From positions 9,649 through 73,648 of the forward strand of contig CABSFR010000002.1 in assembly GCA_902477135.1 (NCBI GenBank): DNA of 64,000 nucleotides. Direction: 5' to 3'. Shown here piece after piece: positions 50,441-64,000 of the stretch. This DNA is from an uncultured Eubacteriales bacterium. Lineage in GTDB: Bacteria; Bacillota; Clostridia; Oscillospirales; Oscillospiraceae. The first letter of the stretch is position 1. The number at the start of each line of letters is the position of its first letter. The notes beneath the pieces are model-generated. The model did no database searches. It saw nothing but the letters and a program-made list of their open reading frames with translations, and was not told where the DNA came from. Both the position numbers and the translations under genes were made by a program.

Positions 50441-54131
<3,691 letters not shown>

Positions 54132-54135
54132 TACG

Positions 54136-57828
<3,693 letters not shown>

Positions 57829-57835
57829 TGACCAA

Positions 57836-57880
57836 AGGGCGCGTTGCAAAATAAGGATTGCAGCGCGCTCTTATTTTATC
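57836..57880 (+). terminator. Imperfect hairpin plus TTATTTTAT after rpoC
   Basis: GGGCGCGTTGCAA...TTGCAGCGCGCTC. Confidence 0.5.
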
Positions 57881-57909: not shown

Positions 57910-57938
57910 TTGCAAAAAACGTGGATTTGCGGTATGAT
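57910..57938 (+). promoter_or_regulatory. Promoter (TTGCAA-17-TATGAT) of the surface-glycan modification cassette
   Basis: Hexamers read from the sequence. Confidence 0.5.
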
Positions 57939-57968: not shown

Positions 57969-59411
57969 ATGCACGCGTTACGATTTCGGGATTTTCTCGC
58001 GCGTGAGCGGTTTGCCGTTATAGCGGCCACCGTTCACTGGCTTACTTCGTTTGTTACCGAACGCTTTATTTTTGAGGTCGCGCCGACGGCCGACCTGCTG
58101 AACTATATTCTCTGCAAGGCCATCCTGTTTGCTGCGCTGTTCGGCTTCTGGCGTCTGATCTGGAAGGGACTGCTTGCTCCCGACCGCCGTACCAATCCGG
58201 AGCGCGCCTACCTGTCCTATGCGCTGCCGTATCTTTTTGCGCTGGTGCTGTGGATGCTCCTTGTGCGCCCCTATGAGCTGGTCGCGGACGAGCTGAGCCT
58301 GTATGAGCGCGCGCTCCGGCTGGACAGCTTTGCCTATTGGTTTAACTATCTTTCCGGCTTTTACTGGATCACCTGTCTGATGGTGCTGCCGCACTATCTC
58401 GGGCCGGTGCTGATCAAGCTGCTTTTACAGGCGCTCATCGCGGGCTACTGCGTCGCGCGGCAGGTTCGCCGCAGCGGCAGGCGGGGACTGCTGATGTACC
58501 TGCTGTTTTTGCTCCCCTTCACGATGGACATGGCGGTCTCCGCGCACCGCCTGCCCACCTACGGCATTGCCTACCTGTTTTTGATCGCCAAGCTGTATTA
58601 TGATTGGCTCGACCACAAGGCGCTGACGCGCACGACCCTCATCCTGCTCAGTGCGCTGATCGGTGTGCTGGCCTTCTGGCGCTCCGAGGGCATCTACCTT
58701 GTGCCGTTGGGTGCGATCCTGCTTTTGGTTGCCTACCGCCTAAAGCCGTGCAAGGCGCTTTGGAAGCAGGCCGCGCTCTACGCGCTGACCCTGCTTGTCG
58801 TCTTTCTTCCGCAGTGCAAGGCCTATGCCGAGTCGGAGGCGAGCCTGAGCCTCAGAACGAAGCCGCTTTGCGGCTATCTCCTGTGCAATATGTTCCGAAA
58901 CGGCCTGACGCCGGAGGACATTGCCGAGGAGCGCGCGGACATCGAGGCGTATCTCAAGCTCGACACGATCTATGATTATATCGAGCGCTATGGCGACGAG
59001 AACTATTATCAGGCCTACGTGATGGAAGGCGTGGAGGACGCGGACTATGCTGCGCAGGAGCGCTTTTGCGCGGCGGTCAAGCGCGTTGTCCTGAAGCACC
59101 CGATGATCTATCTGCGCGCGCAGTGGAACACATGGCGCTATCTCCACCGGCAGTATCCGCTCTCCGGCGCGAGAGCCGTGTTCCACCTGACCTATTGGCT
59201 GTGCATTCCCTGCGCGCTGGTGCTGGCAGCCTGCGTCTATGCGCTGCTGCGGCGCAGGTGGCTGGTCTTCTGGATCACGGGCGGCGGCATTGCAAACTGG
59301 CTGCTTGTCTTTTTGCTGATGCCCGCGGCTTATGCCAAGTATTTCTATGTTGACTACCTGATGGGTTATTTCTTCTTGCTTGCGTGGGTCTTAAAATGCA
59401 GAAAATCCTGA
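57969..59411 (+). CDS. Polytopic (~12 TM) membrane protein. Putative GT-C-type glycosyltransferase/polymerase (GtrC-like role) by context; no confident family assignment
   Basis: 480 aa, hydrophobic throughout. ATG 57969 after GGGGGAGAG. First gene of a gtrA/GT2-containing cluster. Confidence 0.4.
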   Translation: MHALRFRDFLARERFAVIAATVHWLTSFVTERFIFEVAPTADLLNYILCKAILFAALFGFWRLIWKGLLAPDRRTNPERAYLSYALPYLFALVLWMLLVRPYELVADELSLYERALRLDSFAYWFNYLSGFYWITCLMVLPHYLGPVLIKLLLQALIAGYCVARQVRRSGRRGLLMYLLFLLPFTMDMAVSAHRLPTYGIAYLFLIAKLYYDWLDHKALTRTTLILLSALIGVLAFWRSEGIYLVPLGAILLLVAYRLKPCKALWKQAALYALTLLVVFLPQCKAYAESEASLSLRTKPLCGYLLCNMFRNGLTPEDIAEERADIEAYLKLDTIYDYIERYGDENYYQAYVMEGVEDADYAAQERFCAAVKRVVLKHPMIYLRAQWNTWRYLHRQYPLSGARAVFHLTYWLCIPCALVLAACVYALLRRRWLVFWITGGGIANWLLVFLLMPAAYAKYFYVDYLMGYFFLLAWVLKCRKS

Positions 59412-59824
59412 AAAAGTTTCTTCAATTTGTGCTGGTTTCCGGCGTGGGCTGGCTGATCGACTTCGGCATCTACACGGTGCTGACGCGGCTTTGCGCCTTT
59501 CCGGTGGCCGGAGCGAACTATCTCAGCTCCATGGTCTCCGTCACCTTTGTCTTCTTCGTCTCCACAAAGAAGATCTTGGAGACGCGCGGCGGCAGCTGGT
59601 GGCGGAAATACCTGCTCTATGTGCTCTATCAGTTGCTGCTGATCACGGCGGTGTCGTTCTTGGCGCAGTGGATCGACCGGCTGCTGCGCGGCTGGACACT
59701 GCTGTGCAGCGTGCCGCTGCTGCGGCGCAACACCGCGTTGCTTTCGAAGATTCTCATCACACCGATCACCATGGTTTGTAACTTCTTCGTCCTGAGACGA
59801 ATTGCGGAGGGAAAACGTGAGTAA
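59396..59824 (+). CDS. GtrA-family small 4-TM protein (lipid-linked-sugar translocase-like)
   Basis: ~140 aa, 4 TM, GtrA-like FLQFVLVSGVGWLIDFGIY N-terminus. Overlaps the upstream gene. Confidence 0.75.
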   Translation: MQKILKKFLQFVLVSGVGWLIDFGIYTVLTRLCAFPVAGANYLSSMVSVTFVFFVSTKKILETRGGSWWRKYLLYVLYQLLLITAVSFLAQWIDRLLRGWTLLCSVPLLRRNTALLSKILITPITMVCNFFVLRRIAEGKRE

Positions 59825-60611
59825 AATTCTGATCTTTATTCCGATGTATCGCTGCGAAAAGCAGATTCCCAGAGTGCTGGCGCGCATTGCCGCACTCGGA
59901 GAGGAGCAAAAGCGATTTGCCGAGGTGCTTGTGGTGGACAACCGCAGTCCGGATGGCAGCATTGCCGCTGCGCGGCAAGCGCTGTCGAAGCTGTCCATTC
60001 CGGCACGCGTCGTGCGCAACTGCGAAAACTACAGCCTCGGCGGGTCGCATAAGGTCGCCTTTCAGTACGCCGTCGAGCAAGGCTTTGACGGTGTCGTCGT
60101 GCTGCACGGCGACGATCAGGGCGACATCGCGGACATTCTGCCCTATCTTCGCAGCGGCGAGACGGAGCGCTATGACTCGCTGCTCGGCTCCCGCTTTTCC
60201 AAGGACTCAAAGCTCGTCAACTACAGCGGTTTTCGCATTTTCGGCAACCGCGTCTTCAATGCCGTCTTTTCCCTCTTTACCGGAAAACGGGTGCAGGATC
60301 TCGGCGCGGGGCTGAACTATTACAAGACGAGCTACCTCCGCTCAAAATTCTACCTGTCGTTTCCCAATGACCTGACATTTAATGTATATCTTCTGCTCTA
60401 TGGGATCTATTGCAAGTCCGTCTTCCGCTTCTTCCCCCTGACGTGGCGGGAGGAGGATCAGGTCAGCAACGCAAAGCTGTTTTCGCAGACCAAGCGGATG
60501 CTCGGGCTGCTGATGCAATATCTCTTCTGCCGCAAAAAGCTGTTTTCCAGGGACGGCGGCGGGAAGGACTATCGCTATGAAGTCATGGCAGAATATCTGC
60601 CGGAGGGTTAA
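59817..60611 (+). CDS. Family 2 glycosyltransferase (GtrB/DPM1-like, soluble form)
   Basis: ILIFIPMYRCE...VVDNRSPDGS...VVLHGDDQGD (DxD). GTG start 6 nt after GGAGGG. Confidence 0.8.
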   Translation: MSKILIFIPMYRCEKQIPRVLARIAALGEEQKRFAEVLVVDNRSPDGSIAAARQALSKLSIPARVVRNCENYSLGGSHKVAFQYAVEQGFDGVVVLHGDDQGDIADILPYLRSGETERYDSLLGSRFSKDSKLVNYSGFRIFGNRVFNAVFSLFTGKRVQDLGAGLNYYKTSYLRSKFYLSFPNDLTFNVYLLLYGIYCKSVFRFFPLTWREEDQVSNAKLFSQTKRMLGLLMQYLFCRKKLFSRDGGGKDYRYEVMAEYLPEG

Positions 60612-60612
60612 C

Positions 60613-61350
60613 ATGGATACCTATCTGATGATGCCGATGGCGGGCGCGGGCAGCCGCTTTTTTCGGGATGGCTACGAGTGTCCGAAGCCGCTGATCGAAC
60701 TGCGTGGCAAGCCGTTTTTCTACTGGGCGGCAATGAGTGTGGTCGGGAAGATCCCCCTTGCGGGCGTCCGGTTTGTCGTTCTGCGGGAGCACATCGAGCG
60801 TTTCGCCATCGACCGCCGCATCCGCGACTACTTTTCGCAGGCAGAGGTGATCGTCCTTGACCACGTGCTCCGCGGGGCTGTCCTGACCTGCATGGAGGGC
60901 GTGAAGGATCTGTCCGCAGATGTACCACTGCTCTTTAACGACTGTGACCATCTGTTTTGCAGTGAGGCCATGGAGGCTCTGTGCCGTTTGCCGCAGCAGC
61001 AGCGCCCCGACGGCGTGCTGCTGACCTTCCACGCGACGGAGCCGAAATACAGCTTTGTTGCGCTGGATGCCGCCGGAAACGTAGAGCGGACGGTGGAAAA
61101 GCAGGCTATCAGCACGGAGGCCATCTGCGGCGCTTATTACTTTAACCGCAAGGAGCTTTTCGACCGTTACGCAGCGCGCTACCTTCAGGTGTGCCGCTAT
61201 GAGGAGTTCTTCATGAGCGGCGTGTACAACGAGATGATCGCCGACGGCCGCACGGTGCGCAGCCTGAAAACGCAGCTCCATGTTTCCTTCGGAACGCCGG
61301 AGGAGTACACGGCGGCGGAATGCCACCCGTTTTTTGAGGGGAAAACATGA
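60613..61350 (+). CDS. Sugar-/alcohol-phosphate nucleotidyltransferase (LicC/MurU/TarI-like NTP-transferase fold)
   Basis: N-terminal LMMPMAGAGSRF...KPLIELRGKP signature. RBS GGAGGG. Confidence 0.75.
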   Translation: MDTYLMMPMAGAGSRFFRDGYECPKPLIELRGKPFFYWAAMSVVGKIPLAGVRFVVLREHIERFAIDRRIRDYFSQAEVIVLDHVLRGAVLTCMEGVKDLSADVPLLFNDCDHLFCSEAMEALCRLPQQQRPDGVLLTFHATEPKYSFVALDAAGNVERTVEKQAISTEAICGAYYFNRKELFDRYAARYLQVCRYEEFFMSGVYNEMIADGRTVRSLKTQLHVSFGTPEEYTAAECHPFFEGKT

Positions 61351-63245
61351 CGGTACTGTATTTTCTGTGCGCTGTGGGCTTTTTGACCCTTGGGCACGTC
61401 TGCAAGGCGATCCGTTGGCGCAGGTTCGTCGGCGTCTATGAGGACACGCCGCTGCCCACGCTGCTCAGCGCGTTGGCCTCCGGCTATCTGGTCAGTTTCT
61501 ATCTGCCGCTGCATCTGGGCGAGGTCGTCCGCGTTGCGCTCTCCGGCAGAAAGATGAAGAACGGCTACGGCTATGCCATGGCGACCATCGCAGTGGATCG
61601 CTGCCTTGACGTCGTGTGTGTGGCGCTGATCTTCCTTGCCCTTGCGACGATCACGGCGTCCAAGACGATCCTGCACACGGCGCTGACTTATCTTATTTTG
61701 ACGGTGGCGCTGCTCGCGGTGCTGCTGCTTGTCGCGCTCAACAGCCGCCCCTGTAAAAAAATGGCGCTGCTGGGCTGCTCGGTCTTTAACGAAAAGATCA
61801 AGTTCCGTCTGCTGCTGTTTCTCTGGTCGCTGATCTCCTCCTTCAAGGATCTGATCCGGAAGGTCAACGTCTGGAAGCTGCTCCTCGACACCGTGATCAT
61901 GTGGGCGGCCTACCTTGCTTCCTACGCGATGCTCGCACGGATGCTTTGCAGGCAGGGGGCGGCAGTCGGATTTGTCGATGTGTTTTACATGATGTTCCAT
62001 ACCGGTGCGCTGTTCCGCTCCACCTTCGCGGTGACGAGCGGGATGTTCCGGCTGGTGCCTGAGCTGCTGCTGTGCGCATTCATTCTCGTGCCGCTGCCGC
62101 TGCTCCTGCTGGCCTCCGTGCTGATGCGCAAGGCCAAGCCGGCGACCGCAAGTATGCGCCTTCTGCCGCATTTGGAGCCGGAGGAGCAAATGCAGTTTCT
62201 CAACGCGTACTTCGAGGGCGAGCGGCCGGAGGCGATGCACGAGTTTCTTTCCATGAATGCGGATGCCTGCATCATCCGCGACTGTTCCTCCGGTTCCGAC
62301 GCGACCACGATGCTCTGCATGACAAAGGACGGGACGGTCTACCGCAAGTATGCCTTCGGTACGGCTGCTGCCGAAAAGCTCTTCGAGCAGGTGCAGTGGC
62401 TGCACGAGCAGACGGGTAAGCTCCCCCTGCCGGAGATCTGCAACGAAAAGCGGGGCAAGTACTCCTACCGCTATGATATGCCCTATGACAATTCCGCCGT
62501 GGGCTTTTTTGAGTATATCCACAGCCAGAGCGCGGAAAAAAGCTGGCACATCCTGCGCTCCGTGCTGGAGACCTTGCAGGAAAAGCTCTACACCGGTCAG
62601 ACGGCCGCCATTGACGAGGCGATGATCGAGCGCTATGTTACGCAGAAGGTCGAGGGCAACCTGCAAACCATCAGCCAGAGCCGCGCGCTGCGCGCGCTCT
62701 GCGAATATGAAACGCTGGAGATCAACGGTGTGACCTATCGCGGCCTGCCGCGCCTGCGGAAGATGTTCGAGATCCCGCACCTGCGTGAGATTTTTCAGGC
62801 GGAGCGCCGGGCGAACGTCCACGGTGACCTGACGATCGAAAACATCGTCTGTCGGCCGGAGCACGACGATTTTTACATCATCGACCCCAATCCGGACAAC
62901 CCCGTCAAAACGGCGGGCGTCGACTACGCGAAGCTGTTGCAGTCGCTGCACGGCGGCTATGAGTTCCTGCGCTATTCCCGTCCCGCTACGGTGGAGGGAA
63001 ACGCCGTGAACTTCCTTCAGCCCAATTCCGAGCGCTACCGGCAGATTTACTGCCGCTTTGATGCGTGGATGGCGGAGCACATGACCTTCGAGGAGCACCG
63101 CAGCGTTTACTACCATGAGATGATCCACTGGCTGCGCCTGATGCCGTATAAGATGCGCAAGAGCGAAAAGGGCGCGATCAAATACTTCGCCGCGATGATC
63201 GTCGTGATGAACGACATTTATGATCGCTTTGAGGAGGAGAAATGA
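61347..63245 (+). CDS. Fusion protein: N-terminal UPF0104/MprF-type flippase-like TM domain (residues ~1-300) plus C-terminal APH/choline-kinase-like phosphotransferase domain
   Basis: TM domain motif AIRWRRF...LPLHLGEVVRVAL. Kinase Brenner motif VHGDLTIENIVC and IIDPNPDN. Confidence 0.7.
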   Translation: MTVLYFLCAVGFLTLGHVCKAIRWRRFVGVYEDTPLPTLLSALASGYLVSFYLPLHLGEVVRVALSGRKMKNGYGYAMATIAVDRCLDVVCVALIFLALATITASKTILHTALTYLILTVALLAVLLLVALNSRPCKKMALLGCSVFNEKIKFRLLLFLWSLISSFKDLIRKVNVWKLLLDTVIMWAAYLASYAMLARMLCRQGAAVGFVDVFYMMFHTGALFRSTFAVTSGMFRLVPELLLCAFILVPLPLLLLASVLMRKAKPATASMRLLPHLEPEEQMQFLNAYFEGERPEAMHEFLSMNADACIIRDCSSGSDATTMLCMTKDGTVYRKYAFGTAAAEKLFEQVQWLHEQTGKLPLPEICNEKRGKYSYRYDMPYDNSAVGFFEYIHSQSAEKSWHILRSVLETLQEKLYTGQTAAIDEAMIERYVTQKVEGNLQTISQSRALRALCEYETLEINGVTYRGLPRLRKMFEIPHLREIFQAERRANVHGDLTIENIVCRPEHDDFYIIDPNPDNPVKTAGVDYAKLLQSLHGGYEFLRYSRPATVEGNAVNFLQPNSERYRQIYCRFDAWMAEHMTFEEHRSVYYHEMIHWLRLMPYKMRKSEKGAIKYFAAMIVVMNDIYDRFEEEK

Positions 63246-63823
63246 AACAGAGGCTTGCCATTTTTGACTTCGATGGTACTTTGTTTGACACCGTGCCCGC
63301 CAACTACGCCGCTTATCGGCAGGTGCTGGAGCCGTACGGCGTTTCGCTGAGCGAGAACTGCTTCGCGAGCGCGTGCAACGGGCGGTACTATCGGGATTTT
63401 CTGCCCCCGCTGCTGCCCGACGCAAGCCGCGAGCAGATCGACGCGATCCATCGGGCGAAGATCGAGTGCTACCCGAGCTTTTACGATCGGATCGTCGAGA
63501 ACACGGCGCTTTTCGACCTTCTCGCGGCGCTTTCCGAGACATATTTTATTGCGCTGGTCTCCACGGCGACGAAGCAAAGCGTGCTTGACATCCTTACAAA
63601 ATTCCGCCGCGTATCGGCCTTTGACCTGATCCTCACGCAGCAGGATGTGCCGAAGAAGAAACCGGCGCCGGACGGCTTCCTGATGGCGATGCGCCACTTT
63701 CATGTTGCGCCGGAGCAGACGATCATCTTTGAGGATTCGCCCGAGGGCGAGCAGGCGGCACAGGCCTGCGGCGCGGCCTGCCTGATGGTGCACGAGATCG
63801 TTTCGGGAGGGAAGACGGCATGA
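63242..63823 (+). CDS. HAD-IA family phosphatase (beta-PGM/MupP-like)
   Basis: Motif I IFDFDGTLFDT, motif II VSTATK, motif III KKKPAPDGF, motif IV EDSPEG. Confidence 0.8.
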   Translation: MKQRLAIFDFDGTLFDTVPANYAAYRQVLEPYGVSLSENCFASACNGRYYRDFLPPLLPDASREQIDAIHRAKIECYPSFYDRIVENTALFDLLAALSETYFIALVSTATKQSVLDILTKFRRVSAFDLILTQQDVPKKKPAPDGFLMAMRHFHVAPEQTIIFEDSPEGEQAAQACGAACLMVHEIVSGGKTA

Positions 63824-64000
63824 AACGCAGATCGCAGTTCGACGCTCTTCGCATTGCCGCCTGCTGCATGGTCGTCATGATCCATGTGAGCTTTTCCAAA
63901 TGGGACGCCGCGCCGGTGCGGTCGCTCCATTTTACCGTCTGCAACCTCTTTGACAGCATGGTAAGCCCCGCCGCCGTTCCGCTGTTCGTCATGCTCTCCG
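63820..64000 (+). CDS. Acyltransferase family 3 (OatA/OafA-like O-acetyltransferase), 5' fragment running off the window
   Basis: MKRRSQFDALRIAACCMVVMIHVSF... typical AT3 N-terminus. ATG overlaps the HAD stop. Confidence 0.65.
   Translation, partial: MKRRSQFDALRIAACCMVVMIHVSFSKWDAAPVRSLHFTVCNLFDSMVSPAAVPLFVMLS

Follow-up and report, generated by a model that had tools for sequence, protein, structure and literature searches.

What do seven closely packed genes, encoded directly downstream of rpoC in an uncultured Eubacteriales bacterium, build together? They lie at the end of the window, by which we mean the whole stretch of 64,000 nucleotides analysed here (GenBank assembly GCA_902477135.1, contig CABSFR010000002.1, positions 9,649 to 73,648 of the forward strand). 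The cassette combines glycosyltransferases, a predicted nucleotidyltransferase, a phosphatase and an acyltransferase with an unfamiliar protein, G5, in which a flippase-like membrane domain is fused to a small-molecule kinase. We consider it probable that the cassette activates a sugar, loads it onto a lipid carrier, flips it across the membrane and attaches it to a surface polymer. The data behind this reading are folds and families, invariant catalytic residues and gene linkage, and from these we infer every chemical step, the identities of the sugar and its nucleotide, the acceptor and the flipping protein.

The genes are the following (L numbers are our locus identifiers; the alternative starts of G2 and G3 are the gene-caller starts on L001, a metagenomic contig identical to the window):

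57969..59411, + strand: G1, GT-C fold membrane glycosyltransferase (480 aa)
59384 (or 59396)..59824, + strand: G2, small membrane protein of the GtrA family (PF04138)
59802 (or 59817)..60611, + strand: G3, GT2 (GT-A) glycosyltransferase (PF00535)
60613..61350, + strand: G4, predicted sugar-1-phosphate nucleotidyltransferase (245 aa; PF00483)
61347..63245, + strand: G5, PplT::kinase fusion, whole gene (632 aa)
61347..62129, + strand: N-terminal domain of G5, MprF-type flippase-like (PplT / LPG_synthase_TM; PF03706)
62130..63245, + strand: C-terminal domain of G5, small-molecule kinase of the APH/choline-kinase fold (predicted fold, invariant motifs)
63242..63823, + strand: G6, HAD-IA phosphatase, beta-PGM/YqaB-like (193 aa; PF13419)
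63820..64000, running past the window end, + strand: G7, acyltransferase-3, 5' end only (341 aa in L001; PF01757)

To see which of these genes belong together, related loci are more informative than the window. Our neighbourhood census was profile-based and covered 88 loci, 54 of them with enough sequence on both sides. In these 54 complete loci, the nucleotidyltransferase was present in all 54, the GT2 in 53 and the HAD in 52, followed by a G1-like GT-C (31), GtrA (27) and an acyltransferase-3 (6). Over all 88 loci, the immediate upstream neighbour of the fusion is the nucleotidyltransferase in 73, and its immediate downstream neighbour is the HAD in 82. Gene order is shuffled among lineages while membership is kept, and this persistence is strong evidence that the cassette is a functional unit.

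The conserved core is the nucleotidyltransferase, the PplT::kinase fusion, the HAD and the GT2. The type of GT-C, GtrA and the acyltransferase-3 are exchangeable accessories; acceptor polymers that differ by host would lead one to expect this. In Gemmiger (L005, L013), a minimal operon of GT-C, GT2, nucleotidyltransferase, fusion and HAD is surrounded by unrelated genes. The original prediction of a self-contained seven-gene cassette was right in that the operon is real, but it overstated the unit, which has four conserved components and a variable remainder. Its expectation of a conserved block instead of scattered genes agrees with the linkage found across phyla.

The fusion itself had been called unusual, and this did not hold. 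The protein database contains at least 478 relatives, full length down to 39% identity, and the kinase domain alone yields 228 clusters at 50% identity with E <= 1e-30. Scanning one genome per species, we found 182 species-level genomes that encode a fusion relative. Carriers include Oscillospiraceae, Gemmiger, Lachnospiraceae, Lachnospira, Blautia, Monoglobus, Paenibacillus hunanensis and Johnsonella ignava, together with Treponema, Spirochaetaceae, Desulfovibrionaceae, metagenome-assembled genomes (MAGs) of Bacilli/Tenericutes and a Pseudochrobactrum plasmid. Strains of three carriers are in culture: Gemmiger gallinarum DSM 109015, P. hunanensis CGMCC 1.8907 and J. ignava ATCC 51276.

The module often sits within polysaccharide loci: rml (rhamnose) genes and other glycosyltransferases adjoin it in Paenibacillus and Pseudochrobactrum, and a galactofuranose (Galf) mutase in L002. 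The Pseudochrobactrum algeriensis copy (Brucellaceae; L088) is carried by the 33.6-kb plasmid pPB17_3 (NZ_CP075350.1), with a fusion that is 25.7% identical and the order GtrA-GT2-nucleotidyltransferase-fusion-HAD, beside rfbACBD and genes for an IS3 transposase and an integrase. Such a setting suggests that the Brucellaceae acquired an O-antigen-modifying cassette horizontally. Carriage by phages was considered and rejected: the lone 'Bacteriophage sp.' record (L090; MT837550.1, 1-6634, an unverified 6.6-kb scaffold) is a bacterial fragment that looks mislabelled, sharing 99% identity with L081, a contig of Candidatus Cibiobacter qucibialis. Two Lachnospiraceae loci (L068, 3819-7916; L073, 12108-16172) hold the fusion without HAD and GT2 neighbours; a nearby open reading frame (ORF) of ~1360 aa encodes a complete AcrB/RND transporter with a C-terminal nucleotidyltransferase-like domain.

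Predicted steps from sugar to surface polymer

The families first named for GtrA, GT2, the nucleotidyltransferase (NTP_transferase), the flippase-like domain (LPG_synthase_TM) and the HAD (HAD_2) were all recovered as Pfam matches. For G5, PF03706 covers residues 4-214 (E 1.3e-13), and R23, E32, R62, D88 and K137 are among the conserved positions of this PplT domain. In MprF and GpgSDF, proteins of the PplT family are predicted to act as flippases for the lipid-modifying enzymes next to them (bioRxiv 10.1101/2022.03.11.483950; PMC12713373), and PplT-kinase/phosphotransferase fusions have been catalogued as architectures only, with no function given (bioRxiv 10.1101/2022.03.11.483950).

The kinase half was harder to place. 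Sequence and profile searches of the domain against the PDB returned nothing meaningful, and the Pfam APH family (PF01636) was not detected on the window G5, even with the isolated kinase domain at E <= 10; one homologue, P0006, bears a precomputed PF01636 match. Only fold comparison places it. The full-length model (pLDDT 89.3) has an APH/choline-kinase fold in its C-terminal half, and Foldseek with this model returned APH(3'), FN3K, MTR kinase and LicA at E ~1e-6. At least 95% of 85 family members retain the beta3 lysine K334, the catalytic HGDxxxxN loop (H492, D494, N499) and the Mg-binding D513, and both the HGDxxxxN and the IDPN motifs are conserved in the domain. Because the fold and the catalytic residues are conserved without a sequence-level match to solved kinases, this half is a predicted active small-molecule kinase in a family of its own. 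Calling it APH-like, as was done at first, is justified by predicted fold and invariant motifs but not by Pfam.

On either side of the fusion stand two enzymes that would complete a sugar-activation route. G4 matches PF00483 narrowly (21.4 bits against a cutoff of 21.2) and an NDP-sugar (nucleoside diphosphate sugar) pyrophosphorylase in the PDB clearly (4EVW, E 2.7e-16). Its G11-x-G13-x-R15 motif recurs, along with K25, D110 and D112, in at least 95% of 87 sequences. Database names for its homologues are generic or wrong (e.g., 'GT2 family', 'dolichyl-phosphate mannose synthase'). There are more than 1000 of these homologues, the top 120 all at least 50% identical, and between the window and distant loci the nucleotidyltransferase keeps ~43-58% identity against ~35-40% for the fusion. 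This stronger conservation suggests that the same sugar may be activated across hosts.

G6 is a HAD_2 protein (PF13419, E 2e-28) whose best PDB match is the sugar phosphatase TM_1254 (E 4e-18), with beta-PGM-like proteins next. All four HAD motifs are kept, and D9, D11, T108, K140, E164-D165 and a set of residues in the cap domain are shared by at least 95% of 82 sequences. A BT2127-type pyrophosphatase was set aside as a candidate, on weak evidence against it: at a site that varies among the deposited BT2127 chains, the window HAD has Asn where the Bacteroides vulgatus homologue has Glu. We take this site to be Glu47, on which pyrophosphatase activity presumably depends.

In the cytoplasm, a sugar or its 6-phosphate would thus be processed by the G5 kinase, the G6 HAD and G4, first to a sugar 1-phosphate and then to an NDP-sugar. 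Two orders are equally possible: a kinase-first, heptose-like order (sugar 6-phosphate to sugar 1,6-bisphosphate to sugar 1-phosphate), or a phosphatase-first, MupP-like one (sugar 6-phosphate to sugar to sugar 1-phosphate). Sugar salvage, as proposed in the original prediction, is compatible with the trio, but de novo supply is equally compatible, so that salvage is one of at least two such routes.

Related loci also bear on the product of the nucleotidyltransferase. A short-chain dehydrogenase/reductase (SDR) of one cluster occurs in 33 of 84 loci, and in ~26 of these (coordinates read by eye) a GalE-like SDR, whose best PDB match is UDP-glucose 4-epimerase (E 2.7e-45), sits between the GT2 and the nucleotidyltransferase. 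In a Tissierella MAG (L059, 6217-7977), the GalE-like SDR and the cassette nucleotidyltransferase are encoded as one 586-aa ORF. This placement and this fusion argue that the nucleotidyltransferase product would be a true sugar nucleotide, and that some lineages may epimerise it before lipid loading.

For lipid loading, we point to the GT2. G3 matches PF00535 (E 5e-12), and its best NCBIfam matches are ArnC, AglJ, a dolichyl-phosphate (Dol-P)-hexose transferase and PpgS, all under their equivalog cutoffs. Sequence matches in the PDB were restricted to ArnC and Dol-P-mannose synthase (E 6e-5 to 1.5e-4). D104-D105 is conserved in at least 90% of 84 sequences. Since its nearest relatives are all polyprenyl-phosphate glycosyltransferases, at the family level only, G3 is predicted to be a polyprenyl-phosphate sugar synthase. 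It has no hydrophobic transmembrane (TM) segment; this soluble enzyme would put the sugar on undecaprenyl phosphate, probably with the assistance of GtrA. G2 itself has a clear PF04138 match (E 6.4e-9, 36.5 bits against a cutoff of 26.1) and three separate hydrophobic stretches above a simple hydropathy threshold; its role could be either that of a flippase or that of a membrane partner of the soluble GT2.

Flipping of the lipid-linked sugar would fall to the PplT domain and/or GtrA. Judging by gene content, the PplT domain is the only candidate translocator in every locus, because the Gemmiger operon lacks any other and because neither GtrA nor an ArnE/F-like EamA pair is present in the fetched DNA of 40 of the 88 loci. 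EamA pairs were rejected as a general flippase, as they were found only in L024, L038 and L089. GtrA or ArnE/F-like proteins would then be accessory or alternative.

Outside the membrane, G1 would pass the sugar to a cell-wall or surface glycopolymer. That the first membrane protein is GT-C-like, as the original prediction supposed, is confirmed by its fold, and one Asp and one Arg are invariant over 49 homologues. G1 is predicted to move the sugar from the polyprenyl-phosphate-sugar to the surface polymer. The acyltransferase-3 is an optional O-acetyltransferase, which in this organism would O-acetylate the product. Its assignment falls below the cutoff on the 60 codons inside the window (PF01757, E 9e-7, 28.7 bits against 31), but the full-length gene in L001 carries PF01757.

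Gene fusions link these accessories to the transfer step. In L002-L004 (6350-8986), the gene immediately before the PplT::kinase fusion encodes an 878-aa protein that combines an N-terminal acyltransferase-3 (Pfam, residues 4-329) with a C-terminal G1-like GT-C, the latter half assigned with a profile built in this analysis. GtrA::GT-C fusions occur in L045 and L046. Following the Rosetta-stone logic, both kinds of fusion tie the accessory genes to transfer.

Soluble sugar or lipid substrate

Several points weigh against a cytoplasmic sugar-activation route that feeds a flippase and a GT-C. No profile names the sugar, and the equivalog models for ArnC, MurU, MupP, beta-phosphoglucomutase and HddC all score far under their cutoffs. 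The HAD could be a mutase or a pyrophosphatase instead. A G1-like GT-C is found in just 31 of the 54 complete loci, the remaining ones holding other large unannotated membrane proteins, and housekeeping flippases encoded elsewhere in the genome may serve for translocation. A soluble-pathway kinase joined to a flippase has no characterised precedent and, by analogy, the enzyme fused in MprF makes the lipid that is flipped, which would favour a lipid substrate here.

This last point leads to the most serious rival. Following the logic of MprF and GpgSDF, the kinase would phosphorylate undecaprenol, a polyprenyl-phosphate-sugar or a glycolipid, PplT would flip the product, the GT2 may glycosylate a glycerolipid instead of undecaprenyl phosphate and the HAD would later strip the phosphate. 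PplT domains are usually fused or adjacent to the enzyme that makes the translocated lipid, the kinase starts after the last TM helix via a short linker with the conserved P274 (LLPQL in the alignment consensus), and 23 of the 54 complete loci lack a G1-like GT-C. However, the kinase is coupled most tightly to the soluble nucleotidyltransferase and HAD rather than to the GT2, its best fold matches are soluble small-molecule kinases, and the GT-C and GtrA partners indicate a polyprenyl-phosphate-sugar route. Moreover, kinase-only proteins of 320-362 aa exist, and L089 (7189-9089) encodes PplT (262 aa) separately from the adjacent kinase (362 aa), an arrangement that could be a natural split or a frameshift; in this locus, two ArnE/F-like half-size EamA genes take the place of GtrA. 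Therefore, the mechanism does not require the fusion, and the kinase may act on something other than a lipid. Overall, we regard a lipid substrate as unlikely.

A second alternative, raised in the original prediction, is a Lic-type decoration, where the kinase and a cytidylyltransferase would supply a CDP-alcohol (choline, ethanolamine, glycerol or ribitol) for a surface polymer and the GT2, GtrA and GT-C would be unrelated neighbours. The nucleotidyltransferase family can be assigned to neither nucleotide nor substrate, which leaves room for this. Yet the GT2 accompanies the triad of nucleotidyltransferase, fusion and HAD in nearly every complete locus, the GalE-like epimerase next to the nucleotidyltransferase, fused to it once, makes sense only for a sugar nucleotide, and no LicD or CDP-alcohol phosphotransferase was found among the seven products with Pfam and NCBIfam. 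The cassette does not correspond to LicA/B/C/D, LicA being similar at the fold level only, and we find this alternative improbable. The Bacteroides inositol-lipid cluster (nucleotidyltransferase, CDP-alcohol transferase, HAD and an LPG-synthase-like protein; PMC9246714) was also rejected as a different system, with no CDP-alcohol transferase here.

That the kinase is an APH-like antibiotic-resistance phosphotransferase with an incidental gene adjacency can be dismissed as very improbable, since APH membership is borne out by neither the sequence nor the context of the window kinase, which shares the fold but has no sequence-level similarity to solved APHs or detectable PF01636, carries a membrane-domain fusion unlike known APHs, and keeps its nucleotidyltransferase, HAD and GT2 partners across phyla. 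Thus, the kinase and nucleotidyltransferase, which might have turned out to belong to an unrelated pathway, form with the HAD a tight unit outside any resistance-gene context, and sugar activation for lipid-linked glycosylation stands as the preferred reading.

Operon boundaries and flanking sequence

The rpoC ORF ends at 57828, directly upstream of the cassette, and two features separate it from G1:

57835..57872, + strand: rpoC terminator-like hairpin, the upstream boundary of the operon (15-bp stem with 8 G-C pairs, then a T-rich tail; ATTTTATCT)
57910..57938, + strand: promoter-like TTGCAA-17-TATGAT (consensus scan, 9/12 matches)

ORF coordinates and the hairpin agree with the original description of seven co-directional, overlapping or abutting genes after the rpoC terminator. 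All seven ORFs are on the + strand, overlapping or with 1-nt gaps, and 4-nt ATGA overlaps join G4/G5, G5/G6 and G6/G7. A GGGGGAG ribosome-binding site lies ~8 nt ahead of the G1 ATG (57969). The single promoter that had been proposed is well placed, but only its position supports it: the match is no better than chance in this region, as the consensus scan saw three promoter-like sites in 7 kb against 2.5 +/- 1.5 expected. On L001, the operon stops after G7, where a weak terminator-like hairpin is followed by a new promoter-like site before PreT/PreA-like genes. The GC content of the cassette (57-61%) is like that of the flanking rpoBC region.

Two long antisense ORFs were also seen, one opposite rpoC (54934-57849, - strand, 971 aa) and one opposite the fusion gene (61197-63542, - strand, 781 aa). 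Both give low-complexity translations with much Arg, Ala and Gly, and we take them as shadow ORFs of ~60% GC sequence, not as genes. Besides, rpoB (50441-54131) is divided over two frames: the ORF 50441-52060 contains Rpb2 domains 1-2, and a second one, 51951-54131, begins in the middle of domain 3 and holds domains 45, 6 and 7, with the switch within ~51951-52060. This is probably a frameshift from an assembly or sequencing error in an essential gene.

Known systems and meaning for gut anaerobes

The closest likeness on the membrane side is to the Gtr-type systems (Gtr of Shigella and Salmonella, CsbB-GtcA-YfhO, GacI-J-K-L), in which, as in the cassette, a GT2, a GtrA-family protein and a GT-C are encoded together. 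The cassette has three of the features that define the class, with the polyprenyl-phosphate-sugar type of its GT2 assigned at the family level. A review of multi-component transmembrane glycosylation in Gram-positives tabulates systems that add glucose (Glc), galactose (Gal) or N-acetylglucosamine (GlcNAc), and describes GacI as a GT2 working with a separate small membrane protein, GacJ (PMC8035078). The soluble G3 with its small membrane partner resembles this GacI/GacJ pair. Unlike the cassette, the tabulated systems have neither an arm of kinase, HAD and nucleotidyltransferase nor a PplT protein; their Glc, Gal and GlcNAc donors come from housekeeping UDP-sugars. A further difference is that about half of the related loci do without GtrA.

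On the cytoplasmic side, MupP-AmgK-MurU, the N-acetylmuramic acid (MurNAc) recycling route of Pseudomonas, uses the same enzyme classes (HAD-IA, APH-fold kinase and nucleotidyltransferase) and leads from a sugar 6-phosphate to an NDP-sugar without a mutase. The likeness that was first drawn to this route holds for the logic but not for orthology: the MupP model scores 22.7 bits against 359 and MurU 13.5 against 250, and the kinase matches neither PDB kinases nor Pfam APH. In the cassette, the trio is contiguous, the kinase is membrane-fused, and the product would feed lipid-carrier glycosylation instead of peptidoglycan.

The GDP-D-glycero-alpha-D-manno-heptose pathway (HddA-GmhB-HddC) also runs through a kinase, a HAD phosphatase and a nucleotidyltransferase, from sugar phosphate to sugar 1,x-bisphosphate, sugar 1-phosphate and NDP-sugar. 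The cassette shares this logic, and G4 has weak matches to HddC-type proteins (19 bits against a cutoff of 300 for HddC). However, HddA is a GHMP kinase and GmhB belongs to a different HAD subfamily, whereas here the kinase has an APH fold, the HAD is a beta-PGM-type HAD-IA and no GmhA/SIS isomerase is found in the cassette.

The pentofuranose three-component systems (PPPRS, a MATE flippase and a GT136 GT-C; Kelly et al. 2024, PMC11127046) come closest as a precedent for a pathway dedicated to a lipid donor. They share with the cassette the extracytoplasmic addition of side chains, a dedicated lipid-donor route and a HAD phosphatase, some with an auxiliary epimerase. Unlike the cassette, they use a phosphoribosyl pyrophosphate (PRPP) donor via a UbiA-like phosphoribosyltransferase and a MATE flippase, and lack a kinase, a nucleotidyltransferase and a GT2. 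G5 is not an MprF either, as it has no aminoacyl-phosphatidylglycerol synthase domain; in contrast to MprF, GpgF and HexF, it carries a small-molecule kinase as the fused enzyme and is accompanied by genes of polyprenyl-type glycosylation.

Our full-text literature search, with partial coverage of subscription journals, found no paper on this gene combination, in line with the earlier impression that no operon with these parts had been described. The general logic is familiar; what surprises is the flippase-kinase fusion, the new kinase family and the breadth in under-studied gut anaerobes. Taken jointly, these parts may amount to an undescribed and widely transferred module: a new sugar-kinase family, a kinase-PplT fusion that flips a polyprenyl-phosphate-sugar, a private kinase/HAD/nucleotidyltransferase route to a sugar nucleotide not otherwise made, and a new surface-polymer sugar in many gut and rumen Firmicutes, spirochaetes and some Proteobacteria. 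We offer this joint reading tentatively, as somewhat less than an even chance that all of its elements hold.

How surface glycans are decorated determines phage adsorption, immune recognition and resistance to antimicrobial peptides, and to our knowledge these decorations are almost uncharted in the dominant gut Clostridia. The module is compact and portable, with five to seven genes, and occurs in ~180 species, some of them represented by cultured strains; a specific lipid-linked sugar modification can be predicted from it. With it comes a family of APH-fold kinases that sequence models miss. If the sugar is unusual, the kinase/HAD/nucleotidyltransferase trio would be a ready enzymatic route to a new nucleotide sugar for glycoengineering. 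Finally, the module offers a concrete, testable role for the PplT flippase-like family beyond MprF and, if the joint reading is true, PplT domains would here have, for the first time, a functional context other than lipid head-group modification.

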